A stretch of DNA of 64,000 nt from Candidatus Magasanikiibacteriota bacterium. GTDB taxonomy: Bacteria; Patescibacteriota; Patescibacteriia; Magasanikbacterales; GWA2-37-8. The notes under the pieces were generated by a model. The model did no database searches and had not been told where the DNA came from. It worked only from the letters and a program-made list of their open reading frames with translations. Location: NCBI GenBank assembly GCA_016182085.1, contig JACOYB010000004.1, positions 211,923 through 275,922 of the forward strand. Reading direction: 5' to 3'. Below, in pieces: positions 15,729-39,256 of this stretch. Position numbers and translations under genes: made by a program. Each line of letters opens with the position of its first letter. The stretch's first letter is position 1.

Positions 15729-16460
15729 TTATGTTATATCTTTAATGTTAGTAGCATGTTTAAGCGTGTAATCACCGATTTTAGTGCGCATAAGTTCTTG
15801 GCAATAGGCTCCAACTCCGAGTTTGGCGCCAATATCGTGGGCTAAGGTTCGGATGTAAGTTCCTGCCGAACATTGTACTTCAATTTTTAAAACAGGCCAA
15901 GCGTAGTTTAAAAGTTTTATTTTGTAGATTTCTATTTCGTTGGCCTGTCGTTCTACAGTTATTCCTTTTCTGGCCAATTGGTAAAGGCGCTGGCCGTTTA
16001 TTTGTTTGGCCGAAAACATGGGTGGAATTTGTAATTGTTTGCCGATAAACCCGGCCAACACCTCCTGAACCGCAACGAGCGGTTCACCCTCCTTATTAGG
16101 AGGGATTTTCGATTCCCCTCTATTAAGAGGGGTAGGGGTGTGTTCGTATGGAGTTATGTTTCCAGTTTTATCATATGTATCACTGGTCTCTCCCAGTTTG
16201 ATAGTGGCAATATATGTCTTTGGCATGTTTTTAAACTCATCCAATTTTTTGGTGGCTTCACGACCCACGCCTACAATTAAAAGACCGGTGGCAAACGGAT
16301 CAAGCGTACCAGCATGGCCGACTTTGACTCGTTTTTGTTTTTCGGGCAAAGCTGTTTTTTTAACCCGATTGCGCACAAAAGCCACGACATCAAAGCTCGT
16401 CCAGCCCCCAGGTTTGTTTATAAGTAAGAAATTCATATAGTTTATGGGCATATTATGCAA
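15729..16460 (-). CDS. truB: tRNA pseudouridine(55) synthase TruB, carrying an in-frame mini-element
   Basis: KPGGWTSFDVV...GHAGTLDPFATGLLIVGVG is the TruB catalytic motif. The true start is probably the internal ATG at 16436. The 46-bp double hairpin at 16087-16132 adds ...PLNRGESKIPPNKEGEP.... Confidence 0.9.
   Translation of the reverse strand: MHNMPINYMNFLLINKPGGWTSFDVVAFVRNRVKKTALPEKQKRVKVGHAGTLDPFATGLLIVGVGREATKKLDEFKNMPKTYIATIKLGETSDTYDKTGNITPYEHTPTPLNRGESKIPPNKEGEPLVAVQEVLAGFIGKQLQIPPMFSAKQINGQRLYQLARKGITVERQANEIEIYKIKLLNYAWPVLKIEVQCSAGTYIRTLAHDIGAKLGVGAYCQELMRTKIGDYTLKHATNIKDIT
16087..16132. repeat. 46-bp double-hairpin mini-element inside truB (CCCCTCTtaataGAGGGG aatcgaaaat CCCTCCTaataaGGAGGG on the coding strand)
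   Basis: About 84 % identical to the element at 38898-38943 inside tsaC. Confidence 0.75.
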
Positions 16461-16490
16461 GAGTTTAGAGAAAAGGACAAGAACCCCAAA

Positions 16491-16519
16491 TTGACTTTTT
16501 AGCCCTTCTTCTATATAAT
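16491..16519 (+). promoter_or_regulatory. sigma70 promoter upstream of infB
   Basis: TTGACT, 17 nt, TATAAT. Confidence 0.5.
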
Positions 16520-16657
16520 ACGACCTATTCTAAGGGGCTTAGCCACATATATTCTCATTCGCTCGGAAATATCCAACTAAAATATTTATAGATGCTTAAA
16601 TTATATAAATATTTTCTTGTCTATTTCACTCACTCATTTCGAATATAACCAAATCCT

Positions 16658-18673
16658 GTGAACGTATCCGAATTAGCCCGACAACTCCGAATTCATCCGC
16701 AAAAGCTTTTGCAAATTCTGCCTGAGTTTGGTTTTGATATTGGCGCCCGTGCGGTAAAAATAGACGATCGAGTGGCTCAGCAAATCCAGCGCCAGTGGAA
16801 ACGAATGAAGTTTGTCATGGAAGAGCGAGAGCAAAAGGAAAAAGAAAAGCAGAAAGAATTAGAAAAAGAAGCCCGCAAAAGCAGCGGTGTGACCGTAAAC
16901 ATTGCCGATAAGCTAACTGTAAAAGAGTTGGCTGATTTGTTGCAAATGCCAGTTACCAGACTGATTATGGAATTCATGAAAAACGGTATTTTGGCTACTC
17001 AAAATGAAAATATAGATCGTGATACAGCGGCACTGGTAGCCCAAGAGCTTGGGTTTACCGTGGCCGAAGGAAATGGCGAAACCAAGGCTGAAGAAACTTC
17101 GCATGTGGAAAATTTGGAAAATATTTTAACAACAGAGGGTGGATCTGCCAGACCGCCGGTAATTGTCGTGATGGGTCATGTTGATCATGGTAAGACCAAA
17201 TTACTAGACTCTATTCGCAATGCCAATGTAATGGCGCAAGAAGCGGGCGGTATTACTCAGCATATCGGTGCGTACCAAGTTGTCTGGAATAATCCAAAAA
17301 CAAAAGAAAAATCACCTCTCACTTTTATTGATACTCCTGGTCACGAAGCGTTTTCGGTGATGCGCGGTCGCGGTGCCAAGGTGGCCGATATTGCCGTGCT
17401 AGTGGTGGCGGCCGATGATAGTGTGAAGCCGCAAACCATAGAAGCGATAAATATTATTAAAGCGGTAAAGCTGCCGGTAGTGGTGGCAATAAACAAAATG
17501 GATAAAGAAGGCGCTGATCCAAAAAAAGTACGAGCCGATTTGTCTCAGCATAATATTTTGGCCGAAGAGTGGGGCGGCGATGTGCCGATGGTAGAAATTT
17601 CCGCTAAAAATAATTTAAATATAGATAAGCTTTTGGATGTTCTGCTTTTGGTTGCTGATGTTCATGCCGATGAAATAAAAGCCAATCCGGATAGGGCTGC
17701 GGCTGGAACAGTCATTGAAGCGCATGTAGACAAAGGCGAAGGACCCGTGGCCACTGTGCTTGTGCAAACCGGAACTCTAAAACTAAACGATCCGCTAGTG
17801 GTAAACGGAGAAATTTACGGCAAAGTGCGCGCCATGAGAGATTATAAAGGAGAAAATTTAAAAGAAGCCGTGCCCAGCTGTCCGGTAAGAATTTTGGGTT
17901 TCAAGGTAGCGCCGCAGGTAGGAGATATTTTGGATGTGGGCAGCGCCGATTCCGCCACTTTGATTAGCATTAAAGAAAAAAGAAATATCCAATCGGGAGC
18001 GGAAAAGAAAACTGTTTCTAGAACTGCCGACCCGGAAGAAGAGGAGCAGAAAAAAGTTTTAAATTTGATAATTAAAGCCGATACCCTCGGGTCTTTGGAA
18101 GCGATTATTGGGTCTTTGGAAAAAATAAAAAACGAAGAAGTGGGCGTGCGCGTGGTAGGCAAAGGTTTGGGAAATGTTATGGCCGACGATGTGGCTAAAG
18201 CCGAAACCACTCACGCCGTAATTTGTGGTTTTAATGTAACTCCGGTAGTGCTTGCCAAAAACATGATTCAAGATAAAAATATACAATTTTTGCAATTTAG
18301 TGTAATATACGATCTCATAGATTTCGTGAAAGGTGAATTGAAAAAACTCCTCAATCCGGAAAAAATTGTTATTGAATTGGGTAGTTTGCGGGTGGCGGCC
18401 ATATTTAGAACGACCAAAAATAGCATGATTGTAGGCGGAAGGGTAGAATCTGGAAAATTAAAAAAAGATGCCAAAATACGAGTAAAGAGAGGCGGAGAAG
18501 TAATTGGTATTGGTAAGTTAGCCCAGCTTCAATCTGGTAAACAAGCAGTGAACGAATTGCCAGAAGGAAACGAGGGCGGTTTGCAATTTGACGGCAAAAT
18601 AAAGTTGGAAGTAGGCGACGTTTTAGAAGCTTATAAAGAAGAAGAAAAGGAAAAGAAATTGATTTTGGAGTAG
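16658..18673 (+). CDS. infB: translation initiation factor IF-2
   Basis: GTP-binding domain (VVMGHVDHGKTKLLD, DTPGHEAF, NKMD) and a typical C-terminal IF-2 domain. GTG start. Confidence 0.95.
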   Translation: MNVSELARQLRIHPQKLLQILPEFGFDIGARAVKIDDRVAQQIQRQWKRMKFVMEEREQKEKEKQKELEKEARKSSGVTVNIADKLTVKELADLLQMPVTRLIMEFMKNGILATQNENIDRDTAALVAQELGFTVAEGNGETKAEETSHVENLENILTTEGGSARPPVIVVMGHVDHGKTKLLDSIRNANVMAQEAGGITQHIGAYQVVWNNPKTKEKSPLTFIDTPGHEAFSVMRGRGAKVADIAVLVVAADDSVKPQTIEAINIIKAVKLPVVVAINKMDKEGADPKKVRADLSQHNILAEEWGGDVPMVEISAKNNLNIDKLLDVLLLVADVHADEIKANPDRAAAGTVIEAHVDKGEGPVATVLVQTGTLKLNDPLVVNGEIYGKVRAMRDYKGENLKEAVPSCPVRILGFKVAPQVGDILDVGSADSATLISIKEKRNIQSGAEKKTVSRTADPEEEEQKKVLNLIIKADTLGSLEAIIGSLEKIKNEEVGVRVVGKGLGNVMADDVAKAETTHAVICGFNVTPVVLAKNMIQDKNIQFLQFSVIYDLIDFVKGELKKLLNPEKIVIELGSLRVAAIFRTTKNSMIVGGRVESGKLKKDAKIRVKRGGEVIGIGKLAQLQSGKQAVNELPEGNEGGLQFDGKIKLEVGDVLEAYKEEEKEKKLILE

Positions 18674-18691
18674 TTGTTGTCTAGTGTCATT

Positions 18692-18792
18692 GCGAACCTC
18701 GCTTTTGCGAGGTGTGGCAATCCCAAAGTTTGGTAGTGGTACAAAATTAACGGGATTGCCGCGTCGCTACGGCTCCTCGCAATGACAAAAAT
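18692..18792. repeat. structured palindromic element (GTCATTGCGA...TCGCAATGAC, with nested GCAATCCC/GGGATTGC and CCTCGC/GCGAGG hairpins)
   Basis: Same architecture as the GTCATTCCCGC family but divergent sequence. Sits between infB and trxA. Confidence 0.6.
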
Positions 18793-18821
18793 GCATAATT
18801 TATAATTTTTTCTTAAACTAT

Positions 18822-19142
18822 ATGGAACACATATTTACCGAAGCAAATTTTAATGAAGAAGTTTTAAAATCAAAGACGCCAGTATTTATTGATTTTTGGG
18901 CAGCTTGGTGCGGGCCATGCCAAATGATGTCTCCGATTGTAGAAGAAATGGCCAAATCTTACGAAGGTAAAAATATCAAAATCGGCAAATGCAATGTAGA
19001 TGAAAATCCGGAGATTTCTTCAAAGTATAATATCATGAGCATCCCTTCTTTTATGTTGTTTAAAAATGGCGAGCCGGTAGATCAAGTAGTGGGTGGCGTG
19101 CCAAAAGAAAAGTTGCAGAGCATGATAGATAAGCATCTATAA
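18822..19142 (+). CDS. trxA: thioredoxin
   Basis: WCGPC active site; 106 aa. Confidence 0.95.
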   Translation: MEHIFTEANFNEEVLKSKTPVFIDFWAAWCGPCQMMSPIVEEMAKSYEGKNIKIGKCNVDENPEISSKYNIMSIPSFMLFKNGEPVDQVVGGVPKEKLQSMIDKHL

Positions 19143-19246
19143 AAAATTAAACCTTAAACTGAAAGACGGCGACCCCGTCTTTCTTGATTTTTTACCCTAA
19201 GTTCGGTAACATAAATGAATAAAATTGTTTTTATATGGGCTCAGCT

Positions 19247-22200
19247 ATGAAAAAGTACGACCCGAAAAAAATTGAAAAAAAGTGGCAAACTTATTGGGCT
19301 AAAAATAAGACTTTTGAAGTTAAAGAAGATAAGAAGAAAGAAAAATTTTATTCACTCATAGAATTCCCTTACCCAAGCGGAGAAGGACTTCATGTTGGCC
19401 ACCCGCGTCCATTTACGGCCATGGACGTAATTTCTCGTAAAAAAAGAATGGAAGGCAAAAATGTTTTATTCCCAATTGGTTTTGATGCGTTTGGACTGCC
19501 TACCGAAAATTTTGCCATTAAAACCGGCAAGCCGCCGGCCGAAGTAACCAAAAAAAATATTGCCAATTTTACGCGCCAACTCAAGATGTTGGGCTTTAGC
19601 TTTGATTGGTCTCGTGCTGTTGATACTACCGACCCAAATTATTATAAATGGACGCAAGAGATTTTTTTACAATTTTTCAAACATGGACTTGCTTACAAAA
19701 AAAACCAACCGATAAATTGGTGTCCAAAAGATAAAATCGGTCTGGCTAACGAAGAAGTAGTAAACGGAAATTGTGAGCGTTGTGGTACGGCCGTGGAAAA
19801 AAGAAATAAGGAACAGTGGATGCTGGCGATTACCAAATATGCGGATAAACTTTTACAAGGATTAAAAAATGTAGATTATATTGAGCGAGCCAGATTGCAG
19901 CAAGAGAATTGGATCGGCAAAAGCGAAGGTGCGCTGGTTCGTTTTTCGGTTGTCATTCCCGCCAAAGCGGGAATCCAGACAATTCAATCGGACGCTGGAT
20001 TCCCGATCAAGTCGGGAATGACAACGGTTGAAGTATTTACTACCCGCCCAGATACAATTTTTGGAGCTACTTTTTTGGCTATCTCTCCGGAGTTGGCCAA
20101 GAGTTGGTTAGAAGTGGGTTGGCAGGCTAGCGAAGAAGTTAAAAAATATATAACTCAAGCGCTGGAAGCTCGAAGCGCGGCCACTACTCGCGAAGAGCAA
20201 GAAAAAACAGGTATTAGCGCTGGTATTGTAGCCATTAATCCAGTTTCCAAAAAAGAAATTCCAGTTTGGATTACCAATTATGTAATGGGCGAAGTCGGTA
20301 CAGGCGCGATTATGGGTGTGCCGGCACACGATGAGCGTGATTTTGATTTTGCCAAGAAGTTTGGTTTGCCAGTTAAGCAAGTGGTTATGCAAAATATTGT
20401 GGTGGCAGGCGCTGCCGCACCACGAGATAATAAGGGTTTAATACAACGTAAAGTAGTTACAGGTATTATTCGCAATCCAAAAAATGATTCTTTTTTACTT
20501 TTACGACGCGCAGATAAAGAAAGTTCTTTTGTCGGTGGTACCATTGAAGATGGAGAGGATGCTATTGCAGCATTACGTCGTGAAATTGTAGAGGAAACTG
20601 GATATACAGATTTTGAAATTAAAAATACTGTTTTTCCTAATTTTTTTGGTAATGGTTATAAATTACGCGTTGATAAAAATTGCCTTGATTTTGAATATTT
20701 TTATGCGGTTGAATTAAATAGCGAACTTCACCAAGAGGTCAGTAAGGAAGAAATGGCAAAGCACGAGCCATTTTGGGTACCACGTGCGGATGTGTCTAAA
20801 ACAGTCACGCTTACAACGCATCAATACATGTGGAATCTTTATCAAGAAAATAAATACTGCTTCTCTGAAGATGGTATTGCTGTAAGTTCTGATTTTTTAA
20901 ATGGATTAAAAACACCGGAGGCCAAAGAAAAAATGATTAGCTGGCTTGAAGAACATAAGATAGGCAAAAAACAAATAAATTATAAATTGCGCGATTGGGT
21001 ATTTTCTCGCCAGCGTTATTGGGGTGAGCCTATCCCATTGGTATATTGTGAACATTGTAAAAATAAAAAACAGAAAGCTTTATTAATTCATGGTTTTGAA
21101 GCTACTGGAGATAGTAATTGGTTACCGTGGATGAAAATAGAATTAGAAAAACAAGGCTTTGAAGTAATGGTGCCAGCTCTGCCGGATAGTAGTCATCCTG
21201 ATCTTGGAAAATGGCTAGCAGTGTTGCAGCCGTATTTTGATAAATTGGGAGAAAATGATGTTATTGTTGGCCATAGTCTTGGCAGCAAAGCAGCCTTGCA
21301 CCTGCTAGAGACAAGTAAAAAGAAAATTGGTCATGTTTATTTAGTTGCTTCGGCTATTGGGCTTTTGGAGGAGCGGGATTGGAGTAAATTTGAACGCGAA
21401 TGGAAAGGGTCTGATGTAAAAGCGTTGCAAAAATTTTGGGAGAAGCCAGTTAAGTGGGAAGCGGTGGAAAAGTCAGTTGGTAATAAAAATTTAATTTTAT
21501 CTTCTGATGATCCATACATTAAAAAAGAAACTCATAAAAATTTGCCACCAGGATGGTTTTATCAGTTATGGTCTGGCTTTGGTCATTTCCAGCAAAAACA
21601 AATTCCTGAATTGTTAAATTTAATTTTGCAGAGTAAAAACACTGGCTGGGTACCTCTTCCCGAAAGTGAATTGCCGCTCAAACTTCCAAAAGTAGAAAAG
21701 TATCAGCCTACCGATACAGGCGAATCTCCGTTGGCGGCAATGGAAAAATGGGTAAAAACTAAATGTCCAAATTGTGGTGGCCCGGCCAAACGAGAAACAG
21801 ATACCATGCCAAATTGGGCCGGCTCAAGCTGGTATTTTTTGGCGTATGCGATGGGTGGGAAAAAAAGATTAAAAGAAAAAGGCGATAAATTTTGGGATAA
21901 AGAAATGCTAAAACATTGGCAACCGGTAGATTGGTACAATGGGGGAATGGAGCATACAGTTTTGCATTTGCTCTACTCTCGTTTTTGGAATCAATTTTTG
22001 TATGATATTGGCATGGTGCCAACACCGGAGCCATACGCCAAACGCACTTCGCACGGCATGATTCTGGCCAAAGGCGGAGAAAAGATGAGTAAATCGCGCG
22101 GCAATGTGGTAAACCCGGATGAGATGGTAGAACAGTTTGGCGCCGATGCTTTGCGTACCTATATTATGTTTATGGGTCCGTTTGATCAGGCGGTAGAGTG

Positions 22201-22765
22201 GGATACAAATGGGTTGGTGGGAGTAAAAAGATTTTTGGATAAAGTTTGGCGTTTAGGGAATAGGATCGGGGAGCATAAATTAGATCATCCTTGGGCAATG
22301 CATAAAACAATAGCTGCCGTTTCTGCAAGAATTGACAGTATGAGTTTTAATACCGCCATTTCAGAAATGATGGTTTATGCAAATTTATTAGAAAATCATT
22401 TAGGAGAAAATAAAGAGAATGGCACAGTTTCTCGTGAGGCAGTTGAAGCACTTGTGCTGCTTTTATCACCTTTTGCTCCACACTTATGTGAGCAAATATG
22501 GAGCCAGCTTGGTCATGAAAAAAGTATTGCCTTTGAAAAATGGCCAGAAGCTAATCAGGAAGAGTTAGAAAAAAAACAGAATATTAATTTGGCCGTGCAA
22601 GTAAACGGTAAATTACGTGACACTGTAACTGCTTGGTCCGATATTTCAGAGGAAGAAGCAAAGAAAGCGGCACTCGCTAGTGAAAAAATCCAAAAGTGGC
22701 TGGAAGGCAAAGAGCCGAAAAAAGTTATTTATGTAAAAGGCAAGTTAGTGAGTATCGTGGTTTAG
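19247..22765 (+). CDS. leuS: leucyl-tRNA synthetase with embedded Nudix and YdeN/RBBP9-type hydrolase domains and one in-frame palindromic element
   Basis: HIGH motif (HVGHPR), CP1 editing-domain motifs (TTRPDTIFGATFLAISPE), KMSKS (KMSKSRGN) and the anticodon-binding region are all present. One uninterrupted ORF of about 1170 aa (from 19235/19247), versus about 800-860 aa in typical LeuS. See findings. Confidence 0.9.
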   Translation: MKKYDPKKIEKKWQTYWAKNKTFEVKEDKKKEKFYSLIEFPYPSGEGLHVGHPRPFTAMDVISRKKRMEGKNVLFPIGFDAFGLPTENFAIKTGKPPAEVTKKNIANFTRQLKMLGFSFDWSRAVDTTDPNYYKWTQEIFLQFFKHGLAYKKNQPINWCPKDKIGLANEEVVNGNCERCGTAVEKRNKEQWMLAITKYADKLLQGLKNVDYIERARLQQENWIGKSEGALVRFSVVIPAKAGIQTIQSDAGFPIKSGMTTVEVFTTRPDTIFGATFLAISPELAKSWLEVGWQASEEVKKYITQALEARSAATTREEQEKTGISAGIVAINPVSKKEIPVWITNYVMGEVGTGAIMGVPAHDERDFDFAKKFGLPVKQVVMQNIVVAGAAAPRDNKGLIQRKVVTGIIRNPKNDSFLLLRRADKESSFVGGTIEDGEDAIAALRREIVEETGYTDFEIKNTVFPNFFGNGYKLRVDKNCLDFEYFYAVELNSELHQEVSKEEMAKHEPFWVPRADVSKTVTLTTHQYMWNLYQENKYCFSEDGIAVSSDFLNGLKTPEAKEKMISWLEEHKIGKKQINYKLRDWVFSRQRYWGEPIPLVYCEHCKNKKQKALLIHGFEATGDSNWLPWMKIELEKQGFEVMVPALPDSSHPDLGKWLAVLQPYFDKLGENDVIVGHSLGSKAALHLLETSKKKIGHVYLVASAIGLLEERDWSKFEREWKGSDVKALQKFWEKPVKWEAVEKSVGNKNLILSSDDPYIKKETHKNLPPGWFYQLWSGFGHFQQKQIPELLNLILQSKNTGWVPLPESELPLKLPKVEKYQPTDTGESPLAAMEKWVKTKCPNCGGPAKRETDTMPNWAGSSWYFLAYAMGGKKRLKEKGDKFWDKEMLKHWQPVDWYNGGMEHTVLHLLYSRFWNQFLYDIGMVPTPEPYAKRTSHGMILAKGGEKMSKSRGNVVNPDEMVEQFGADALRTYIMFMGPFDQAVEWDTNGLVGVKRFLDKVWRLGNRIGEHKLDHPWAMHKTIAAVSARIDSMSFNTAISEMMVYANLLENHLGENKENGTVSREAVEALVLLLSPFAPHLCEQIWSQLGHEKSIAFEKWPEANQEELEKKQNINLAVQVNGKLRDTVTAWSDISEEEAKKAALASEKIQKWLEGKEPKKVIYVKGKLVSIVV
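19952..20022. repeat. GTCATTCCCGC-family palindromic element, copy A, in-frame in leuS
   Basis: GTCATTCCCGccaaagCGGGAATCCAG...CTGGATTCCCGatcaagtCGGGAATGAC encodes VIPAKAGIQTIQSDAGFPIKSGMTT. Confidence 0.85.
20400..20830 (+). other. Nudix hydrolase domain embedded in LeuS
   Basis: The Nudix box GX5EX7REUXEEXGU is matched exactly by G TIEDG E DAIAALR RE I V EE T G Y. It lies between the editing domain and the NYKLRDWVFSRQRYWGEPIP motif. Confidence 0.7.
21060..21640 (+). other. YdeN/RBBP9-family alpha/beta serine hydrolase domain embedded in LeuS
   Basis: LLIHGFEATGDSNWLPWMKIELEKQGFEV...VIVGHSLGSKAALHLLE...GFGHF resembles B. subtilis YdeN (HWFPWLKK...AHSLG...GGHF). It is inserted between the zinc-knuckle cysteines CEHC and CPNCGG. 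Confidence 0.65.
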
Positions 22766-22868
22766 GCAGGCCAATTTAGTTTTATTAATGTTGGTTATTG
22801 TGGTAGAATAACAGAAAGTTAACTGTATTTGATTATGTCTGCCAAAGCTGAAAAAAGGATTATTTATT

Positions 22869-24878: not shown

Positions 24879-24894
24879 TTTTGTATCTCTAAGT

Positions 24895-25266
24895 ATGAAG
24901 AAAATTCTTATAGTTGAGGACGAGTTAGCGCTGTTGTACGCTTTGGCATCCCAATTTAGTAAAAAGCAATTTACAGTCTTTGAAGCTGTAGATGGCGAAG
25001 AGGGCTTGAAAAAAGCCATAGATGAGCAGCCGGATTTAATTTTATTGGATTTATTGATGCCAAAAAAAGACGGCATGTCCATGTTAAAAGATTTGCGCAA
25101 GCATCCGTGGGGCAAAAACGCGAAAGTTATAATTTTAACCAATTTAAGCGATGCCGAAAAAGTTGACGAAGCGCTTAAAAATGGCACCTATGATTATTTG
25201 GTAAAAACCGATTGGAACATCACTCAAGTCATTGAAAAAGTAAAGGCTAGTTTGGGAATGAAATAG
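24895..25266 (+). CDS. single-domain response regulator (CheY-like receiver)
   Basis: MKKILIVEDE...DLILLDLLMPKKDG...KVIILTNLSD...K. Confidence 0.85.
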   Translation: MKKILIVEDELALLYALASQFSKKQFTVFEAVDGEEGLKKAIDEQPDLILLDLLMPKKDGMSMLKDLRKHPWGKNAKVIILTNLSDAEKVDEALKNGTYDYLVKTDWNITQVIEKVKASLGMK

Positions 25267-25273
25267 CCGGACT

Positions 25274-27850: not shown

Positions 27851-27899
27851 CTATGGGTGCTCCTTATCAGGAATTTAACATAATTTTAAATATAAATCA

Positions 27900-28259: not shown

Positions 28260-28303
28260 GTTTCCTCCTAAAAAGAATTTAACATAACTAAAATTTTAAA
28301 TCA

Positions 28304-30576: not shown

Positions 30577-30581
30577 CCCAT

Positions 30582-30608
30582 GTCATCCTGAACTTGTTTC
30601 AGAATGAC
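30582..30608. repeat. GTCATyCTGAAC-family hairpin, short copy G, acting as nusA terminator
   Basis: GTCATCCTGAACttgtttCAGAATGAC. Confidence 0.6.
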
Positions 30609-30633
30609 AATTATTTAGTCATTAGAAATTTTT

Positions 30634-31386: not shown

Positions 31387-31427
31387 ACTCGGTGTTAATT
31401 TAATTAAAACCCATCGGCACATATTGT

Positions 31428-31694
31428 ATGATTATTAATCTGCGTACATTATTGCATCTGCCGGTTTATACCGAGTCTGGAACGAAACTCGGTACGGTTT
31501 TTGATTTAGAATTGGATGCCGAAGGGCATGTCATAATGAAATATTTTGTTAAAGCGAATTTTTTAAGCGTAAAATATTTTCTGATTGAGAAAAGTTTGGT
31601 AAAAGAAATTACAGAAGACAAAATAGTTGTATATGATAGCGTGGAAAGGGGTAGTTTGCTTGAAATGCCGCCCAATATGGCTTTAGGGGAGTAA
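31428..31694 (+). CDS. PRC-barrel-like domain protein
   Basis: 88 aa. A LG.V.D..D...G.V..Y.V pattern typical of PRC barrels. Confidence 0.35.
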   Translation: MIINLRTLLHLPVYTESGTKLGTVFDLELDAEGHVIMKYFVKANFLSVKYFLIEKSLVKEITEDKIVVYDSVERGSLLEMPPNMALGE

Positions 31695-31698
31695 CTTT

Positions 31699-32634
31699 AT
31701 GATTCAAGTTGAAACGCTGCAGCGTTCCATAAAAAATACCCTAACTTATTTTGATATAGCTGATTTTCCTCTTACCAAAGAGGAACTTTTTGTTTTTCTT
31801 TGGCAACCGCCCAGGGTTAGTTATGCGGATTTTTTAGAATTTTTACAGATAAATAATTCTGGATTTGAAACCAGACAGGGTTTTTATTTTTTGCCGGGCA
31901 GATCCGAACTTATAGAAACGAGGCAGCGCCGGCTGCTTATTTCCGAAAAAAAACTTAAGATCGCTCGTCGGGCGGCCGGAATAATTAGATCGGTTCCGTT
32001 TCTCAAAGCCGTGTTTGTCTGTAATACGGTCGGATCCGAACAAGCCAAAGAAGATAGTGATATAGATTTTTTTATAATTACGGCCAAAAATAGAATCTGG
32101 GTTACCAGATTGTTTGTTACATTTTTATTGAGTTTGTTTAGGTTAAGACGTGTTAAAGATCGCGTTAAAGATAAAATCTGCCTTAGTTTTTATGTGACCG
32201 AAGATAATTTGGATTTGTCTAAATTTAGAGTGGCTGACGATGATATTCACTTTGCTTTTTGGATAAACCAAATGTTGCCGCTATATGACCCGGATAATTA
32301 CTTCGCCAAATTTTTAGAGGCAAATAGCTGGACAAAAAAGTATTTACCGAATATAAATATTAGCAGCAGTGCATCTTATATTTTTAAAGTTTCCGATTCC
32401 CGCCTCGGGAAAATTTGGAAAAGTATCTGGGAAAAAATGTGGACAGGTGCTTATGGGGATTTGGTAAATGGTGAAGCCAAGAAAATACAATTATCCAAAA
32501 TGAAGTTTTCCGGCAATAAAATAGACAGAGGCGAAGATAAAGGCGTGGTAATTTCCGATTCTATTTTGAAGTTTCATGAGAAGGACACTAGGCTGCAATA
32601 TAGAGAATTATGGCAACACAAAATCGCATCCTAA
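31699..32634 (+). CDS. nucleotidyltransferase-domain protein (Pol-beta superfamily)
   Basis: The hG[GS]x9-13Dh[DE]h motif is present: CNTVGSEQAKEDSDIDFFII. Confidence 0.5.
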   Translation: MIQVETLQRSIKNTLTYFDIADFPLTKEELFVFLWQPPRVSYADFLEFLQINNSGFETRQGFYFLPGRSELIETRQRRLLISEKKLKIARRAAGIIRSVPFLKAVFVCNTVGSEQAKEDSDIDFFIITAKNRIWVTRLFVTFLLSLFRLRRVKDRVKDKICLSFYVTEDNLDLSKFRVADDDIHFAFWINQMLPLYDPDNYFAKFLEANSWTKKYLPNINISSSASYIFKVSDSRLGKIWKSIWEKMWTGAYGDLVNGEAKKIQLSKMKFSGNKIDRGEDKGVVISDSILKFHEKDTRLQYRELWQHKIAS

Positions 32635-34061
32635 TTTTAAAAAAAGCACAGGATTTGATCCTGATTGCGTTTTTGTTTTTGTTGCCTTGGCAGACCAGGT
32701 ACATTTGGCATTATGGCCAGTTGAATGGCGGGTATTGGGAGTATGGCACCGGCAGTATTTATGCGACCGAGATATTGTTGTGGATTATTTTAATTCTATT
32801 TTTTGTTAATAATTTTCTAAACAAAGAAGTTTGGGCGGGACTCATAAGGAGAAAAAATATTTTAGCACCTGTGTTTTTGCTGTTTTTGGCGGTACTTGGT
32901 TTTTCGGTAGTTTTTAGTGAAAATATTGGCGTGTCTTATGGTTATGTTTTTCACATCTTAGAAGGTATGGCTCTAATGACAGTGCTGGTGCGAAGTGGAC
33001 AATCGTTCGCTGTCATCCCGACCGCAGTGGAGGGATCCCTTATACCAAATCAAAAAGATTCCTCTATTACGCTTCGTTCCAATTGGAACGACAAATATTT
33101 GTATGCTATTTGGCTGGGCGCAGTAGGGCAGGGCATGTTGGCAATGTATCAATTTTTAAACCAAAGTGTTTTTGCGAGCAAATGGTTGGGGATGGCCGGG
33201 CAGGAGGCATATAATTTAGGTCCAAGCGTGATAGAGTTTGCCGACCAAAGATGGTTGCGCGCGTATGGAAGTTTTGGTTCGCCAAATTCACTCGGAATTT
33301 ATCTGGCAGTTTTGTTTGTCTTAGGTCTTATATTGTATTTAAAAACAGAATCCCCGCGTTATAAAATTTTAATCAGTATTGGCCAGCTATTTGTTTTGTC
33401 AGGTTTACTAGTCTCTTTTTCCCGAGGAGCGTGGCTCGCGGCTGTAGCCGGGGTGTTATGTTTATTTATAATTTTAATTTATAAGCGCAAACCGTCATTC
33501 CCGCCGCAAGCGGGAATCCAGGCAATCGGATCGGATACTAGATTCCCGCTTGCGGCGGGAATGACAAATTTGAAAGAATTTGCCAAACAAATAGTTTTTG
33601 TTTTAGCAGTAGTTGTATTTTGGGTAGCTATTTTTTATCCGGTATTTAACGCTCGGTTTAATCTGCAAAATCGCTTAGAAATAAAATCCGTTGCTGAAAG
33701 GCAGGAGCAGTATAGCGGGTCACTGGCGTTTATTAAAGTAAATTCAGTCTTAGGTGTTGGCCCGGGTGCATATACGTATGCGTTATATAAAAAATATTCA
33801 AATTTAGCTTCCTGGCAATATCAGCCAATCCACAATATTTATCTGCTTGGCGTAGTAGAAATGGGCGTAGTTGCGGCCGTGCTGCTTGCGTTCTTAATAG
33901 CAAATTTTGCTAAAATGATTATAAAAAATAATATTATTTATCTTCCGGTTCTAACTGCCCTGCTTGTTTCTGGCCTGTTTGATCATTGGCTTGCCAGCTT
34001 GTTTACGGGCATAATGTTGTGGTGGGTAATCTGGGGTCTAGGTCTAAAAAGAAACTCTTGA
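32610..34061 (+). CDS. O-antigen ligase / Wzy_C-family polytopic membrane protein with two in-frame palindromic-element insertions
   Basis: At least 10 TM segments and the SRGAW motif (LLVSFSRGAWLAAVAG). Elements at 33003-33031 and 33494-33565 are translated within the ORF. Confidence 0.65.
   Translation: MATQNRILILKKAQDLILIAFLFLLPWQTRYIWHYGQLNGGYWEYGTGSIYATEILLWIILILFFVNNFLNKEVWAGLIRRKNILAPVFLLFLAVLGFSVVFSENIGVSYGYVFHILEGMALMTVLVRSGQSFAVIPTAVEGSLIPNQKDSSITLRSNWNDKYLYAIWLGAVGQGMLAMYQFLNQSVFASKWLGMAGQEAYNLGPSVIEFADQRWLRAYGSFGSPNSLGIYLAVLFVLGLILYLKTESPRYKILISIGQLFVLSGLLVSFSRGAWLAAVAGVLCLFIILIYKRKPSFPPQAGIQAIGSDTRFPLAAGMTNLKEFAKQIVFVLAVVVFWVAIFYPVFNARFNLQNRLEIKSVAERQEQYSGSLAFIKVNSVLGVGPGAYTYALYKKYSNLASWQYQPIHNIYLLGVVEMGVVAAVLLAFLIANFAKMIIKNNIIYLPVLTALLVSGLFDHWLASLFTGIMLWWVIWGLGLKRNS
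33494..33565. repeat. GTCATTCCCGC-family palindromic element, copy B, in-frame
   Basis: Perfect 28-bp inverted repeat GTCATTCCCGCCGCAAGCGGGAATCCAG / CTAGATTCCCGCTTGCGGCGGGAATGAC. Encodes FPPQAGIQAIGSDTRFPLAAGMT. Confidence 0.85.
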
Positions 34062-34153
34062 CACCCGGTTTTTCTTCTAGTAAAATGAGTTCACTCTTAT
34101 CACTCTATTATTTTGAGTGCTAATACTTCTAAATAATTTAATTATTTTAGTAT

Positions 34154-34438
34154 ATGCAAATCAAGCCATTAGGAGACAACGTTTTAGTTAAGCAAATCAA
34201 AGCCGATGAAGTTACTTCTTTCGGTTTGGTTTTGCCGGATAAAGACGAGAAAAAAGCCGAAGCCGAAGTAGTGGCCGTTGGCCCGGGCAAATTGCTTGAA
34301 AACGGACAGCGAAGCAATATGGAAGTAAAAGTTGGCGACAAAGTACTATTAAAAAATTGGGGTGGAGAAAAAGTAGAATTAAATAAGGAAGAATATAAAA
34401 TTGTTTCACAGGATGATATTTTAGCAGTAATTCAATAA
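34154..34438 (+). CDS. groES: co-chaperonin GroES
   Basis: MQIKPLGDNVLVKQ...VVAVGPGK...GDKVLL is the canonical Cpn10 sequence. Confidence 0.95.
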   Translation: MQIKPLGDNVLVKQIKADEVTSFGLVLPDKDEKKAEAEVVAVGPGKLLENGQRSNMEVKVGDKVLLKNWGGEKVELNKEEYKIVSQDDILAVIQ

Positions 34439-34562
34439 ATAAGAGTCTCATTGATATTAATTTTCTTGCAGCCAAACTACCCCTAAAGGGGATGCTCGCT
34501 GCGGCGAGTGCGATGGCTGCCGCAAAAATCAATATCAACTCGCCTTGTATCTTAATTCATAA

Positions 34563-36227
<1,665 letters not shown>

Positions 36228-36240
36228 ACAAAACTATTTT

Positions 36241-36306
36241 GTCATGCCGAACTTGTTTCGGCATCCCGTTATTAGCAAGGAGATCCCGAAACAAGTTCGG
36301 GATGAC
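36241..36306. repeat. GTCATyCTGAAC-family palindromic element, copy H
   Basis: GTCATGCCGAACTTGTTTCGGCATCCCG...CCCGAAACAAGTTCGGGATGAC. Followed by the terminator AAAAGCGCTCCgaaaGGGGCGTTTTTT. Confidence 0.7.
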
Positions 36307-36402
36307 AGAAAAACAAAAGCGCTCCGAAAGGGGCGTTTTTTGTTTGTAAAATGTTAGAATACAGAGTAGAATTAATTTAACTATTTAAATCATTTATAAA
36401 TT

Positions 36403-36894
36403 ATGAGCAGCTATATAATTTCATTTTTTTCCTCATTTCCCCCAGAACTCGCCACTTTTCTTATTGGTATGACACCTGTTGGCGAAATTCGCCTGGCTTT
36501 ACCGGTGGCAATTTTGGGATACAAACTCCCGATTTGGGAGGCGTTTTTTTGGGGAGTAATGGGGAATATGGTTCCGGTAACTATAATTTTGTCTTTCGCT
36601 AAATATTTTCATTTATGGATTCACAAAAGATCCGGATGGTTTGCCTCGGCCTGGGTTAAATATCTGGATAGAGCCCAGCATAAATTTGCGGGGGATTATC
36701 AAAAATACGGATTAATCGGACTGATGATTTTTGTGGGCATCCCACTGCCTATGACCGGAGCGTGGACCGGCGCTTTGGCCGCTTTTGTTTTTGCTTTGCC
36801 TTTTGGCAAATCATGGTTTTCTATTTTAGCCGGCGTAATTATTTCCGGCATGGCTACATTGCTTATAACCGTTGGAGCGGGCAGGATATTTTGA
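36403..36894 (+). CDS. small membrane protein, putative small multidrug-export (COG2426-like) family
   Basis: Four TM segments; N-terminal GMTPVGEIRLALPVAILGY motif. Confidence 0.4.
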   Translation: MSSYIISFFSSFPPELATFLIGMTPVGEIRLALPVAILGYKLPIWEAFFWGVMGNMVPVTIILSFAKYFHLWIHKRSGWFASAWVKYLDRAQHKFAGDYQKYGLIGLMIFVGIPLPMTGAWTGALAAFVFALPFGKSWFSILAGVIISGMATLLITVGAGRIF

Positions 36895-36917
36895 GTTTCC
36901 ATTTTTGGCTTCTCACC

Positions 36918-36951
36918 CTATAAGGGGGAGGATATAGGAGGGGGTTTCGGA
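36918..36951 (+). repeat. 32-bp direct repeat (left copy) flanking the DUF559 gene
   Basis: ccctataagggggaggatataggagggggttt compared with 37476-37507 ccctataagggggaggacagaggagggggttt. Confidence 0.75.
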
Positions 36952-36958
36952 TATTATT

Positions 36959-37336
36959 ATGACCATAAAGAGAACATATCAAAACGAACCGACACTAAAG
37001 GATGTGAGGCGTTTCCTGCGCGCAGAAGGCACGTCCGCAGAAAAAATTTTATGGAAGTATATTCGCAAAAATCAATTAGGTTATAAATTTCGTAGGCAGT
37101 TTAGCATTGGAAATTTTGTGGCTGATTTTTACTGCCACGAGCTTAAATTAATTATTGAATTGGATGGGTGGACACACGATAGTTCTCAGACTAAAATTAA
37201 AGATTTGCGGAAACAACAATTTTTTGAAGGTAAGGGTTATACAGTAATTAGACTTACGAACGAAGAGATTTATGGAGATCCGGAAAAATTTATTGCTCGT
37301 ATTAAAGAGATTTGTGATAAATTATCAAAATACTAA
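36959..37336 (+). CDS. DUF559 (Vsr-like / restriction-endonuclease-like) endonuclease domain protein
   Basis: 125-aa protein with ...FVADFYCHELKLIIELDGWTHD...TVIRLTNEEI..., the DUF559 fold signature. Confidence 0.6.
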   Translation: MTIKRTYQNEPTLKDVRRFLRAEGTSAEKILWKYIRKNQLGYKFRRQFSIGNFVADFYCHELKLIIELDGWTHDSSQTKIKDLRKQQFFEGKGYTVIRLTNEEIYGDPEKFIARIKEICDKLSKY

Positions 37337-37475
37337 ACCCCACCCTTTATCCCTCCCCTTGTAGGGTAGGGAACGAACGAAACAAAGAATAATAACTATT
37401 CTCTTCACACACCTCTTTACTTATAAGGGAGGGAGCGAACAGGTAAGCGGCTGGAGTAAGTTTGTTGTAAGTCCT

Positions 37476-37507
37476 CCCCCTATAAGGGGGAGGACAGAGG
37501 AGGGGGT
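37476..37507 (+). repeat. 32-bp direct repeat (right copy), immediately 5' of prfB
   Basis: Contains the perfect hairpin CCTCCCCCTataAGGGGGAGG followed by AGGAGGGGG. Confidence 0.75.
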
Positions 37508-37521
37508 TTTGTGCTAATACT

Positions 37522-38598
37522 ATGTCCATAGATGATTTAAAACAATTACAATCTAAAATACAATCCACCAAAAAACTTCTTAACATAGAAAGTCTGCAAA
37601 AAAAGATGGAACAGTTGGCGGAAGAAATGAACGCGCCTGATTTTTGGAACAACCAAGAAAATGCGCAAGCGGTTAGCCAGGATTATCAGGATATAAAAAA
37701 AGAAATAGATAAGTTTGAAGATTTGGAAAAAAGAATAAATGACCTGCTAGAATTATCGCAATCGCAAGACGAATCCTTGGCTAGTGAAATAGAAGATCAA
37801 ACCAAAAAATTGCAAAAAGAATTTGATGATTATGAATTTTTGGTTTTGCTTTCGGGGCCGTATGATAAAAGTAACGCAATTATTAGTATTCACGCCGGCG
37901 CGGGTGGTACTGAAGCGCAAGATTGGGCCGAAATGTTGTTGCGCATGATTATGCGTTTTGCGGATAAGATGGGTTGGAAAACCAGAATTTTAGACGAATC
38001 TCGCGGTGCCGAAGCCGGTTATAAATCGGTCATGTTAGAAATAAAAGGACGGTATGCGTATGGTTATTTAAAATCCGAACACGGCGTGCATAGACTAGTG
38101 CGCATTTCTCCATTTGATGCCGAAAAAATGCGCCATACCTCTTTTGCGCTTATAGAAGTTTTGCCAGAGCTGGATGATAAAGTAAAAATTGAAATTGATC
38201 CAAAAGATTTGAGGATTGATACATTTATGTCCGGGGGCAAGGGCGGACAAAGTGTAAACACTACTTATTCGGCGGTGCGGATTGTGCATATTCCTACCGG
38301 CATTTCTGTTTCTTGCCAAAACGAACGGTCGCAGCAGCAAAACAAAGATATGGCCATGAAAATTTTACAATCAAAATTAAATATTTTAGAAGAAGAAAAG
38401 AAAGCCAAAGAACGCCAGGAAATGCGCGGAGAATACAAATCCGCCGAATGGGGCAACCAAATTCGTTCGTATGTGTTGCACCCATATCATTTGGTAAAAG
38501 ATAATAGATCCGAATACGAATCTGCCGATCCGGAATCAGTTTTAGAAGGTGAGCTACTGCCGCTTAGCGAAGCGTATTTAAAGTGGATAAAAAGCTAG
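37522..38598 (+). CDS. prfB: peptide chain release factor 2, encoded without programmed frameshift
   Basis: SPF tripeptide motif (RISPFDAEKMRHTSFA) and GGQ motif (SGGKGGQSVNTTYSAVRIVHIPTGI). Continuous 358-aa ORF. Confidence 0.9.
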   Translation: MSIDDLKQLQSKIQSTKKLLNIESLQKKMEQLAEEMNAPDFWNNQENAQAVSQDYQDIKKEIDKFEDLEKRINDLLELSQSQDESLASEIEDQTKKLQKEFDDYEFLVLLSGPYDKSNAIISIHAGAGGTEAQDWAEMLLRMIMRFADKMGWKTRILDESRGAEAGYKSVMLEIKGRYAYGYLKSEHGVHRLVRISPFDAEKMRHTSFALIEVLPELDDKVKIEIDPKDLRIDTFMSGGKGGQSVNTTYSAVRIVHIPTGISVSCQNERSQQQNKDMAMKILQSKLNILEEEKKAKERQEMRGEYKSAEWGNQIRSYVLHPYHLVKDNRSEYESADPESVLEGELLPLSEAYLKWIKS

Positions 38599-38599
38599 T

Positions 38600-39256
38600 A
38601 TGGAAGTTTTAAAAGAATGTGATTTAGCCAAAATAGCTGTTTCCTTATTTGAAGGTAAGACTATTGTGTTTCCCACAGAGACTTCTTATGGTTTGGGATG
38701 TGACGCAACTAATCAAGAAGCAGTAGATAAAATTTTTAGCATTAAAGACAGGGCAGATGATAAGCCGCTTCTTATTGTAGTGCCAAGCGTAGAGATGGCA
38801 AAAAAATATTTGGTATGGAATAATACTATAGAAAAATTAGCCAAGGCGTATTGGCCAGGCGCTTTAACAATTATTGGAAAATATAACGCACCCCCGGCCC
38901 CTCTTTATAGAGGGGAATCGACAATCCCTCCTAAAAAGGAGGGTGGGGAGGTGTTGGCTAGTGGTGTAGTCTCAAAAAATAATACTGTGGCCGTGCGTGT
39001 CAGCAAACATGATTTAGTAAAGTTTTTAAGTGAAAGTTTGGGTAAACCGCTCGTGGCAACTTCGGCCAATATCTCTGGTGCCGGGGAAGTGTATAGCGGC
39101 CGCGCTGCCAAAATTATGTTTGCAGAAAAAGAATACCAGCCGGATATTATTTTGGATTACGGAGAGTTGGAGCACCGTCCTCCCACAACCCTGGTTGATG
39201 CAAGTAGTGATACAATTAATATCATAAGACAAGGCCAAGTAGAAATAAACATCTAA
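38600..39256 (+). CDS. tsaC: L-threonylcarbamoyladenylate synthase TsaC/YrdC with in-frame mini-element
   Basis: YrdC fold motifs (VFPTETSYGLGCDA, KPLLI, ATSANISG). The element at 38898-38943 encodes PLYRGESTIPPKKEGG. Confidence 0.85.
   Translation: MEVLKECDLAKIAVSLFEGKTIVFPTETSYGLGCDATNQEAVDKIFSIKDRADDKPLLIVVPSVEMAKKYLVWNNTIEKLAKAYWPGALTIIGKYNAPPAPLYRGESTIPPKKEGGEVLASGVVSKNNTVAVRVSKHDLVKFLSESLGKPLVATSANISGAGEVYSGRAAKIMFAEKEYQPDIILDYGELEHRPPTTLVDASSDTINIIRQGQVEINI
38898..38943. repeat. 46-bp double-hairpin mini-element inside tsaC
   Basis: CCCCTCTttataGAGGGG aatcgacaat CCCTCCTaaaaaGGAGGG. Confidence 0.75.

Follow-up and report, generated by a model that had tools for sequence, protein, structure and literature searches.

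The window, a 64-kb stretch of a Candidatus Magasanikbacteria genome, contains two essential genes for tRNA-modifying enzymes, truB and tsaC, that carry the same GC-rich palindromic element within their reading frames, and a gene for a free-standing DUF559 protein that is flanked by palindromic modules (Table 1). The annotated start of truB is probably at 16436. A 46-nt double hairpin had been described in the first-pass annotation on the coding strand of both truB and tsaC, and we confirm it: the pattern CCCCTCT-N4-AGAGGGG-AATCGANAAT-CCCTCCT-N4-AGGAGGG has exactly two matches in the 64 kb (16087-16132, minus strand; 38898-38943, plus strand) and none in 100 dinucleotide-preserving shuffles of the window. 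Its repetition is well beyond chance. The encoded peptides, PLNRGESKIPPNKEGEP and PLYRGESTIPPKKEGG, are also as first reported.

Table 1. Genes and palindromic features of the window
Feature	Position	Strand	Evidence or remark
truB, tRNA pseudouridine-55 synthase, MBI2037570.1	15729-16460	-	Pfam TruB_N, E=1.3e-46
truB copy of nested-palindrome element	16054-16145	-	Fold; covariance model R1, 63.1 bits
truB copy, outer right arm + TTGGC	16054-16065	-	
Extra 21-nt hairpin, TGAACCGC-TCGTT-GCGGTTCA	16066-16086	-	truB copy only; perfect 8-bp stem
truB copy, hairpin 2	16087-16104	-	
truB copy, spacer	16105-16114	-	
truB copy, hairpin 1	16115-16132	-	
truB copy, outer left arm	16133-16142	-	
5' palindromic module of DUF559	36912-36955	+	Hairpin + G-rich arm
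Free-standing DUF559 (Vsr-like PD-(D/E)XK) endonuclease gene, MBI2037589.1	36959-37336	+	PF04480, E=3.6e-30
3' palindromic module adjoining DUF559	37327-37372	+	C-rich arm + hairpin TCCCTCCCCT-TGT-AGGGTAGGGA
Distal copy of 5' module	37471-37512	+	11-bp perfect hairpin + G-rich arm; 92% direct repeat of 36912-36947
tsaC, threonylcarbamoyl-AMP synthase, MBI2037591.1	38600-39256	+	Pfam Sua5_yciO_yrdC, E=5.5e-45
tsaC copy of nested-palindrome element	38885-38958	+	Fold; covariance model R1, 68.9 bits
tsaC copy, outer left arm CACCCCC	38889-38895	+	
tsaC copy, hairpin 1	38898-38915	+	
tsaC copy, spacer AATCGACAAT	38916-38925	+	
tsaC copy, hairpin 2	38926-38943	+	
tsaC copy, outer right arm GGGGAGGTG	38945-38953	+	Followed by TTGGC, common to truB copy

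Over the 46-nt core the two copies agree at 43 positions (93%); the 84% identity first given for them is the mean of an 86-nt alignment that includes flanking sequence. The three mismatches fall one each in loop 1, the spacer, and loop 2, and they alter the encoded residues (Y/N, T/K, and K/N), while all 28 stem positions are the same. The double-hairpin core stands as described, but 46 bp is not the size of the unit, which is really a nested palindrome of 66-87 nt built stepwise. An outer stem, CACMCCCC / GGGGAGGTG, surrounds both hairpins, and the element measures ~66 nt in tsaC and ~87 nt in truB, where a third nested hairpin sits between hairpin 2 and the outer right arm. The tsaC copy lacks this third hairpin, which is modeled as an insertion by R1, a covariance model built from ten sequences that include the repeats of locus L013 (see below). 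We rejected the third hairpin as a member of another dispersed family: It is the sole such hairpin in the window, and the chance of a match at that stringency is 14%.

Both copies terminate in the 12-mer GGAGGTGTTGGC, which has no further occurrence in the window, and have predicted folding energies of -38.4 kcal/mol (tsaC, z = -4.0) and -42.3 kcal/mol (truB, z = -5.8). R1 also matches the tsaC copy on its reverse strand (32.8 bits): The halves of the element are inverted and similar in architecture, each being itself a hairpin. Terminal inverted repeats are present in the form of the outer stem (CACCCCC / GGGGAGGTG). We found no convincing target-site duplication or defined ends at either the truB or the tsaC site, which weighs against the explanation that we favor below, and note a possible GGGG duplication on either side of a 29-nt inner block. 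A scan of the whole window against Rfam at the gathering threshold returned two tRNAs only, so no known RNA family matches the element.

Both host ORFs are intact and continuous through the inserts, with no in-frame stop and no intein or intron signatures, and we therefore rejected an intein, an intron, or ribosomal bypass. In the AlphaFold models, the tsaC insert (residues ~97-121) is a disordered loop (pLDDT 89.7 overall; <50 at 102-108 and 110-115), and the truB insert forms a coil between a strand (101-103) and a helix (125-135; pLDDT 83.0 overall, <50 at 109-115). Both inserts are thus predicted to be low-confidence or disordered surface loops in otherwise confident models, and solved structures of TruB and TsaC/Sua5 have gaps precisely at the insert positions. 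The host enzymes presumably remain active despite the insert. The source is metagenome-assembled, and short repeats can produce misjoins, which raises the question of a repeat-induced chimera. However, each host ORF continues in frame into orthologous sequence to either side of its insert, the TruB segment with its insert recurs unchanged in an independent Logan assembly (P0001), and the TsaC sequence (P0121) is on record in NCBI, nr, and Logan sources. An assembly artifact is therefore scarcely credible.

The truB and tsaC segments are insertions relative to empty orthologous sites. The closest relative, GCA_964619625.1, shares 82% (TsaC) and 84% (TruB) amino-acid identity with the window proteins and has neither insert: Its tsaC (L002) shows a clean 54-nt gap against the window allele, and its truB a net 39-nt difference inside an unalignable segment. 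Short linkers are common in the candidate phyla radiation (CPR, alias Patescibacteria), with 14-19 residues at the insert position in 71 of 110 parseable CPR TsaC homologs. Equivalent residues are therefore far from universal among orthologs, and the original suggestion of an inserted mobile mini-element is supported by the empty sites in the closest relative and by the surface-loop placement in the AlphaFold models. The element grew by nested steps. At the tsaC site, the alleles form a series from empty (P0122) through a single nested hairpin of +21 nt (P0178, L021) to the window allele, which exceeds that of P0178 by an in-frame block of 33 nt (spacer and hairpin 2); the truB copy has one further nested 21-nt hairpin added.

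Could the module instead be host-selected, as a useful peptide loop or as an mRNA structure that tunes translation or stability? Every polypyrimidine-hairpin module seen in coding sequence lies in an RNA-modification enzyme (TruB, TsaC, KsgA, or TGT), the G-rich arms resemble Shine-Dalgarno sequences, and the predicted mRNA folds are very stable. However, the loci were chosen with a bias to tsaC, truB, and DUF559 neighborhoods; the substitutions between copies change amino acids and preserve stems; the encoded loops are predicted to be disordered; and the closest relative lives without the inserts. In addition, at L013 the same element is read in two different frames within one protein. We consider a host function of this kind, as opposed to selfish DNA, very improbable.

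Public data contain few instances of the exact 22-nt core. In collections that do not include the source genome, it was found at one locus in genome_contigs and eight in metagenome_contigs, and these nine contigs represent a single orthologous site, in the 3' end of an O-antigen-ligase-like ORF and immediately before the following gene; viral_contigs gave no match. A 31-column profile of the two encoded peptides retrieved two weak partial matches and nothing convincing from 1.84 billion representative proteins, so the exact sequence family has no detectable in-frame spread elsewhere. Both this rarity and the number of visible copies, two within the 64-kb window, count against the explanation that we favor below. 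The window also has dispersed copies of a second palindromic family, unrelated to the first, which lie in frame (LeuRS and an O-antigen-ligase-like gene) or between genes, with DUF559 absent nearby. The observation that the two hosts of the first family are tRNA-modification genes is thus correct as a fact, but given the hosts of the second family it is probably not the point.

The DUF559 gene is the sole one in the window. Its product scores 104.5 bits against PF04480 (cut-off 20.6), has the conserved E-x-D-G-x-x-H core, and matches PDB 3hrl (E=1.5e-15), with a faint match to 3r3p. The related hairpins that the first-pass annotation placed around this gene are real and proved the key lead. 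They comprise 36-nt direct repeats, 92% identical (36912-36947 and 37474-37509), and 41-nt inverted repeats, 78% complementary, that directly bracket the ORF (36915-36955 and 37327-37367). The 5' module contributes the left member of both repeat pairs, direct and inverted, the adjoining 3' module is the right arm of the inverted pair, and the distal module overlaps a weak R1 match (37406-37510, 18.7 bits). Polypyrimidine-arm hairpins in the window are almost confined to these flanks and to the truB and tsaC elements; the sole other one, at 3436-3455, has one mismatch and a different sequence. The family that flanks the window DUF559 (CCCCCTATAAGGGGG) differs from the truB/tsaC family, and no partner nuclease bracketed by the latter was seen in the window, whose only DUF559 has another family. 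This difference also weighs against our favored explanation.

Other CPR genomes place DUF559 inside TsaC itself. An in-frame DUF559 occupies the same codon position as the window insert in 13 of the 120 listed CPR TsaC homologs. In the TsaC tree these proteins are scattered among empty alleles, a sporadic distribution at one fixed site, and their embedded domains are nearest to each other (57% mean identity, vs. 43% to free-standing copies); their precomputed Pfam lists hold DUF559, MTES_1575, and Sua5 only. At L013, the DUF559 ORF lies within TsaC between 87-nt direct repeats that are 94% identical. Each repeat is a complete outer stem with two hairpins and aligns with the window element (their R1 scores of 67-68 bits are not independent evidence, because the repeats are in the training set). 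The 3' copy has the same frame and the same adjoining host residues as the window insert (...PPLKRGGDADSSPPFKEGTGGVV-LSGLATG vs. ...APLYRGESTIPPKKEGGEV-LASG in the window).

Hairpin repeats also bracket DUF559 at L004, L016, L017, and in the window, and such repeats are present in five of the eight DUF559 cassettes examined, with a start-to-start spacing of 427-562 nt. They are direct copies of whole modules as often as simple terminal inverted repeats, and hairpin order varies by locus (L004 vs. L013 and L015). The modules being palindromes in their own right, repeats occur in both direct and inverted orientation; with this and the varying order of hairpins, a MITE derived by simple internal deletion of a TIR-ORF-TIR unit is no more than a possibility. 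Free-standing DUF559 proteins have hairpin-coded C-terminal tails (P0329 ends ...TPALSLRRRGRTQNPLLFKEGIQG...), and R1 also matches a module that lies in frame in the TGT gene of a Portnoybacteria genome, with a DUF559 gene 600 nt away. In GCA_030650025.1, the hairpin family CCYCCATMGCAATGGAGG stands on both sides of DUF559 inside TsaC and recurs as solo two-hairpin modules inside KsgA and TruB. The palindromic modules are thus physically associated with DUF559, including at the identical tsaC site, and one hairpin family is common to DUF559 flanks and dispersed solo copies within a genome. None of the 120 TruB homologs listed showed a DUF559, which again counts against our favored explanation, and a search with the embedded DUF559 domain returned almost only free-standing proteins (104-211 aa) and established no further host genes.

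The cassettes in TsaC suggest another history, in which a DUF559 cassette once sat in tsaC (and truB) and was deleted between its direct repeats to leave one behind, like a solo LTR, the module itself being immobile. Recombination of the two L013 repeats would yield exactly the window tsaC arrangement, with the same frame and host junction; P0169 carries an in-frame, internally deleted DUF559 at the same TsaC site; and DUF559-bearing and DUF559-free TsaC hosts intermingle in the tree. However, the window TsaC clade is otherwise empty save for P0178, whose simpler single-hairpin allele looks like a stage of stepwise gain and not like decay of a 480-nt cassette. Deletion would also require two independent cassette insertions and two precise excisions that left copies still 93% identical, and the TruB homologs listed offer no cassette from which to start. 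We regard this history as distinctly unlikely.

Our favored explanation, to which we assign a probability of about 0.55, is that the element is a solo, nuclease-less palindromic module of a DUF559-associated selfish system, kept only where it is translatable. A miniature nested-palindrome selfish element would have been copied within this genome into truB and tsaC, as a member of a class of polypyrimidine/polypurine hairpin modules that bracket DUF559 genes in CPR bacteria; the solo module would be either a non-autonomous partner or a remnant after loss of the nuclease ORF between repeats. Insertions would survive only under three conditions: The frame is kept, no stop codon is introduced, and the surface loop is tolerant. 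The module would then be translated as a disordered Pro/Gly/charged peptide, with the constraint acting on the DNA or RNA stems and not on the peptide. DUF559 would provide the break or nick behind the copying, by a route that may be repair-templated or recombinational, and the chemistry of transposition is likewise inferred. Against this explanation, we know of no biochemical activity for CPR DUF559 proteins. The co-location of hairpins and DUF559 could mirror a shared tolerance of the same sites and not a mechanistic partnership. In its favor, DUF559, Vsr, and the homing endonuclease I-Bth0305I (PDB 3r3p) belong to one PD-(D/E)XK clade (PMC3424549), and a Vsr-like homing endonuclease family is known (PMC2677866).

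Alternatively, the element may be an independent REP/REPIN- or RPE-like unit moved in trans by an unseen transposase (e.g., RAYT or an IS200/IS605-type Y1 enzyme), with DUF559 genes as separate selfish genes that preferentially land in or beside palindromes of this kind, in the manner of certain insertion sequences, for which REPs are documented targets (PMC1525189). The nested palindrome with inverted symmetry is REPIN-like, as the reverse-strand R1 score of the tsaC copy illustrates, the second palindromic family of the window is dispersed within and between genes away from any DUF559, and the window DUF559 has flanks of another family than truB and tsaC. However, no transposase gene was noted among the selected ORFs that were Pfam-scanned in the window and the fetched loci; the DUF559 of GCA_030650025.1 is bracketed by the family that is also dispersed as solo copies, as expected of a cognate pair; and the bracketing repeats of the five cassettes are consistently spaced. 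We judge an independent element of this kind unlikely. More tentatively, and at somewhat less than even odds, DUF559 and translatable nested-palindrome modules may together form an undescribed class of CPR selfish elements, in which homing-type cassettes invade essential genes, the truB and tsaC solos are non-autonomous or relic forms, and the class is a major source of loop insertions in CPR housekeeping proteins. Such a cassette would need no intron or intein, because its palindromic ends would also serve as in-frame peptide linkers that do no harm.

In-frame palindromic selfish DNA has hitherto been a curiosity largely confined to Rickettsia, and it is now seen in unrelated, genome-reduced CPR bacteria, with a candidate enzyme partner. 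Should DUF559 prove to be this partner, a testable function would be available for a very widespread "domain of unknown function", and endonuclease genes would have, in addition to introns and inteins, a third means of residing inside an essential gene. It would also explain an annotation puzzle, the odd Pro/Gly-rich loops and variable lengths of CPR core proteins. Phylogenomic work on CPR bacteria should mask these modules, since they make proteins look more divergent than they are.

Several known systems share features with the element. Like MITEs, it is small, with terminal inverted symmetry and no coding capacity, and related full-length units hold an ORF between similar termini; however, these units encode DUF559 and not a known transposase, and neither a target-site duplication nor a parent insertion sequence that has a recognized transposase was found at the sites and loci examined. 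An optional GC cluster of yeast mitochondria sits in the var1 coding region. Such clusters, reported as short GC-rich mobile elements (PMC4478555), resemble the present element by description, as GC-rich palindromes in an AT-rich genome that can lie in coding sequence and spread in a gene-conversion-like manner tied to double-strand breaks, but they belong to a eukaryotic organelle, have unrelated sequences, and lack a DUF559 partner.

REPIN-RAYT systems use a palindromic doublet with inverted symmetry as a small mobile unit (PMC3116915, PMC3337134), to which the present element may correspond, and their gene flanked by repeats that are also dispersed solo in the same genome has its counterpart in GCA_030650025.1. 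REPINs, however, are intergenic, whereas both window copies are intragenic and in frame; the REPIN partner is a single-copy Y1 (HUH) transposase, whereas the module-flanked gene here is that of the Vsr-like PD-(D/E)XK nuclease DUF559, which itself occurs as an in-frame insertion in other genes. Vsr-like (EDxHD) homing endonucleases such as I-Bth0305I, and the "fractured genes" associated with them (PMC2677866, PMC3239194), belong to the same PD-(D/E)XK clade as DUF559 and, like it, occur sporadically at a single fixed site in a conserved gene. Known examples lie in group I introns, between split inteins, or free-standing, whereas DUF559 with its hairpin linkers stays in the host frame without an intron or intein signature; the window inserts (66-87 nt) hold no nuclease ORF, which is present only in the tsaC alleles of other genomes.

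By analogy, the closest known counterpart is the family of Rickettsia palindromic elements (RPEs), which are described as dispersed palindromes of ~100-150 bp, in frame in unrelated housekeeping genes, translated, and compatible with the fold (Ogata et al. 2000, summarized in PMC10969869). The truB/tsaC element shares the defining trait of a palindromic repeat that lies in frame in ORFs and encodes a tolerated peptide segment. RPEs are restricted to Rickettsia and have no known cognate enzyme, whereas the present element occurs in CPR bacteria and is DUF559-associated; it is set apart by host and size, as a 66-87-nt unit of nested polypyrimidine/polypurine hairpins.

The first-pass annotation placed a 46-bp double hairpin in frame in both truB and tsaC. 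Its pattern has exactly two matches in the window, at 16087-16132 (reverse strand) and 38898-38943 (forward strand), each inside an intact ORF and on its coding strand, and none in shuffled sequences. A pairwise alignment of the 46-nt cores gives 43 matches in 46 positions: Loop 1, the spacer, and loop 2 hold one mismatch each, none of the 28 paired positions varies, and the differences alter the encoded residues (Y/N, T/K, and K/N). The size of 46 bp holds for this core; the full unit is larger, since both hairpins sit within an outer stem (CACCCCC / GGGGAGGTG) in the predicted fold, and the truB element owes its greater length to a further perfect hairpin nested inside. The predicted folds have energies of -38.4 kcal/mol (z = -4.0) for the tsaC copy and -42.3 kcal/mol (z = -5.8) for the truB copy, and both copies share as their 3' end a 12-mer, GGAGGTGTTGGC, that does not recur in the window. 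A covariance model of the module (R1), built from 10 copies and run unfiltered on the window, matches only the tsaC element (68.9 bits) and the truB element (63.1 bits), which are training-set members, and, weakly (18.7 bits), the 3' flank of the window's DUF559 gene. The window stems from a 410,459-bp contig of a Candidatus Magasanikbacteria MAG. The TruB insert is also present in an independent Logan assembly (P0001). In AlphaFold models of both proteins (overall pLDDT, 89.7 for TsaC and 83.0 for TruB), the insert is an unstructured coil with pLDDT <50.

Both sites are empty in the closest relative, GCA_964619625.1, which is syntenic with the window. Its tsaC shows a clean 54-nt (18-codon) gap; its truB differs by a net 39 nt in an unalignable segment with flanks ~90% identical, and R1 finds no match in the two loci fetched from this genome. 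Solved TruB and TsaC homologue structures have gaps at the same positions. The empty sites and these gaps support the proposed insertion of a mobile mini-element. Both loops are general insertion hot spots: Among 110 parsed TsaC homologues, the linker has 14-19 residues in 71, inserts of +4 to +61 residues in 27, and a DUF559 domain in 12, while in TruB (90 parsed homologues), extra segments from several hairpin families are present in about half.

A DNA alignment of tsaC alleles yields a series of three steps, from the empty P0122 through P0178 to the window. P0178 (locus L021) has a single nested hairpin, ACACACCCCCAACCCCTCTTATTAGAGGGGAGGTGTTGGC, of +21 nt; to this, the window allele adds 33 nt in frame, made up of AATCGACAAT, hairpin 2, and TGGGG. 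These two alleles share the flanks GGAAAATATAAC and TTGGCT without a mismatch, although the gene around them is much more diverged. The truB copy is one nested hairpin further on. From this series and the extra truB hairpin, palindromes already in place therefore seem to draw in further palindromic insertions, and the composite seems later to have been copied as one unit between tsaC and truB.

Coordinates of genes, elements, and repeats (window positions unless a fetched locus, L, is named)
Feature	Position	Strand	Remarks
truB	15729-16460	-	Pfam TruB_N, E=1.3e-46; protein MBI2037570.1
tsaC	38600-39256	+	Pfam Sua5_yciO_yrdC, E=5.5e-45; protein MBI2037591.1
tsaC element	38889-38953	+	~66 nt
truB element		-	~87 nt; longer by one extra hairpin
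Extra truB hairpin	16066-16086		Perfect; between hairpin 2 and outer right arm
87-nt module copies	L013 1448-1534 and 1926-2012		Either side of DUF559 ORF in tsaC
In-frame polypyrimidine-hairpin module	L004 6686-6775		KsgA/RrnaAD
In-frame polypyrimidine-hairpin module	L022 3289-3375		TruB
In-frame polypyrimidine-hairpin module	L019 809-898		TGT
Second family, in frame	19949-20024		Leucyl-tRNA synthetase ORF (19235-22765); peptide VVIPAKAGIQTIQSDAGFPIKSGMT
Second family, in frame	33495-33567		O-antigen-ligase-like (Wzy_C-like) ORF (32610-34061); peptide SFPPQAGIQAIGSDTRFPLAAGMT
Second family, intergenic	near 42545-42583, 58113-58188, 63552-63616
Direct-repeat pairs	1720-1768/4274-4322; 4161-4266/5472-5577
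74-nt repeat family	2455, 4977, 5540, 6278

At exactly the element position, 13 TsaCs (346-375 aa) among the 120 homologues listed carry by Pfam annotation an in-frame DUF559 domain (PF04480). In locus L013, a pair of 87-nt direct repeats set 478 nt apart (94% identity) encloses the DUF559 ORF. Each copy is a complete module of outer stem and two hairpins alignable with the window element; both are among the R1 training sequences, and their high R1 scores are not independent evidence. The two repeats are read in different frames of one TsaC (RPLPTLPLKGEEATILPLLLRRGQEEW and TPPYPPLKRGGDADSSPPFKEGTGGVV), and the conserved thing is therefore not the peptide. The 3' repeat has the frame and host junction of the window (PPLKRGGDADSSPPFKEGTGGVV-LSGLATG vs. 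APLYRGESTIPPKKEGGEV-LASG). DUF559 is likewise enclosed by repeats that contain hairpins in L004 (40 nt) and L016 (23 nt). In L014, four tandem 27-nt repeats (2202-2310), encoding (VTSPRPILK)n, stand between the embedded DUF559 and its 3' hairpin within a TsaC gene.

DUF559-bearing TsaCs are interspersed among empty alleles in a neighbor-joining tree. The embedded domains are mutually nearest (mean identity 57% vs. 43% to free-standing copies), their identity correlates with that of the host TsaC (r = 0.60), and they are more conserved than the host among the closest pairs only. P0169 retains an in-frame DUF559 remnant with an internal deletion at the tsaC site. These data fit a site-specific lineage with frequent loss, possibly with local re-invasion. 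The window's solo module could be what is left of an old decayed cassette; a recent gain is favored, because the window TsaC sits in an otherwise empty clade of the tree.

The association extends to free-standing DUF559 genes. Related hairpins had been said to flank the one in the window, and 36-nt direct repeats (92% identical) do lie at 36912-36947 and 37474-37509; the ORF itself is directly abutted by 41-nt inverted repeats. In the window, hairpins with polypyrimidine arms occur almost only at these flanks and at the truB and tsaC elements. In L017, 47-nt hairpin-containing repeats stand on both sides of a free-standing gene, and hairpin-coded tails are common in free-standing DUF559 proteins. 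The most telling case is GCA_030650025.1, where the hairpin family CCYCCATMGCAATGGAGG lies on both sides of DUF559 within TsaC and recurs as in-frame solo two-hairpin modules in KsgA and TruB. A TGT gene of Portnoybacteria, adjoined by a DUF559 gene, likewise contains an R1-matching module in frame. All in-frame polypyrimidine-hairpin modules found in the fetched loci and the window are in RNA-modification enzymes (TruB, TsaC, KsgA, and TGT), a bias that may be real or may be a product of which loci were fetched.

DUF559 has been grouped in the Vsr clade of PD-(D/E)XK nucleases with the homing endonuclease I-Bth0305I (PMC3424549; PMC2677866). The window protein matches PDB 3hrl (E=1.5e-15) and, faintly, 3r3p. 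We suggest that DUF559 would nick or break DNA at or near these palindromes, after which repair or recombination would copy the module in, alone or together with the ORF. Selection would purge insertions unless in frame, stop-free, and in tolerant loops of a putatively active host enzyme. The DUF559 connection is the part most deserving follow-up.

A second nested-palindrome family of the window, unrelated to the first (GTCATTCCCGC..GCGGGAATCCAG..CTGGATTCCCG..CGGGAATGAC), lies in frame in two ORFs and also between genes, so that in-frame palindromic insertion is a habit of this genome in general. Compared with Thermus thermophilus LeuRS (PDB 1h3n), the window LeuRS (1176 aa, forward strand) has two whole-domain in-frame insertions, NUDIX and serine-hydrolase (alpha/beta-hydrolase), at residues ~386-541 and ~609-803, with no evident hairpin-coded peptides at their borders. 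Nine contigs from groundwater and other metagenomes (L001, 2685-2765, and L005-L012) conserve a 68-nt version of the truB/tsaC element with an identical spacer (AATCGAAAAT) at a single orthologous position, the 3' end of a Wzy_C-like ORF, with the next gene and a TATAAT-like box directly downstream; the Gammaproteobacteria label of L001 may be a binning error. One relative has a 23S_rRNA_IVP (four-helix-bundle "intervening sequence protein") gene in the prfB-tsaC spacer (L016, 1089-1469), and the Sm_multidrug_ex-prfB spacer holds DUF559 in the window and an unrelated ORF of 140-150 aa in the closest relative. The two spacers would appear to be places where small selfish genes land. Several direct repeats (49-106 nt, 61-94% identical) are scattered between 1.7 and 6.4 kb; two tRNA genes and an adenylosuccinate-lyase-like ORF are nearby.

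Overall, the analysis bears out the first-pass reading of the truB/tsaC element. An intein, intron, or bypass element is ruled out, and none of the papers in the library searched ties DUF559 to palindromic repeats or in-frame insertion. In behavior, the element is like the Rickettsia palindromic elements (PMC10969869), from which it differs in host taxon and size. It is likewise set apart from REPIN-RAYT systems by their extragenic location and Y1 transposase partner, but their arrangement, a gene flanked by repeats that are also dispersed as solo copies, is the same pattern seen in GCA_030650025.1.
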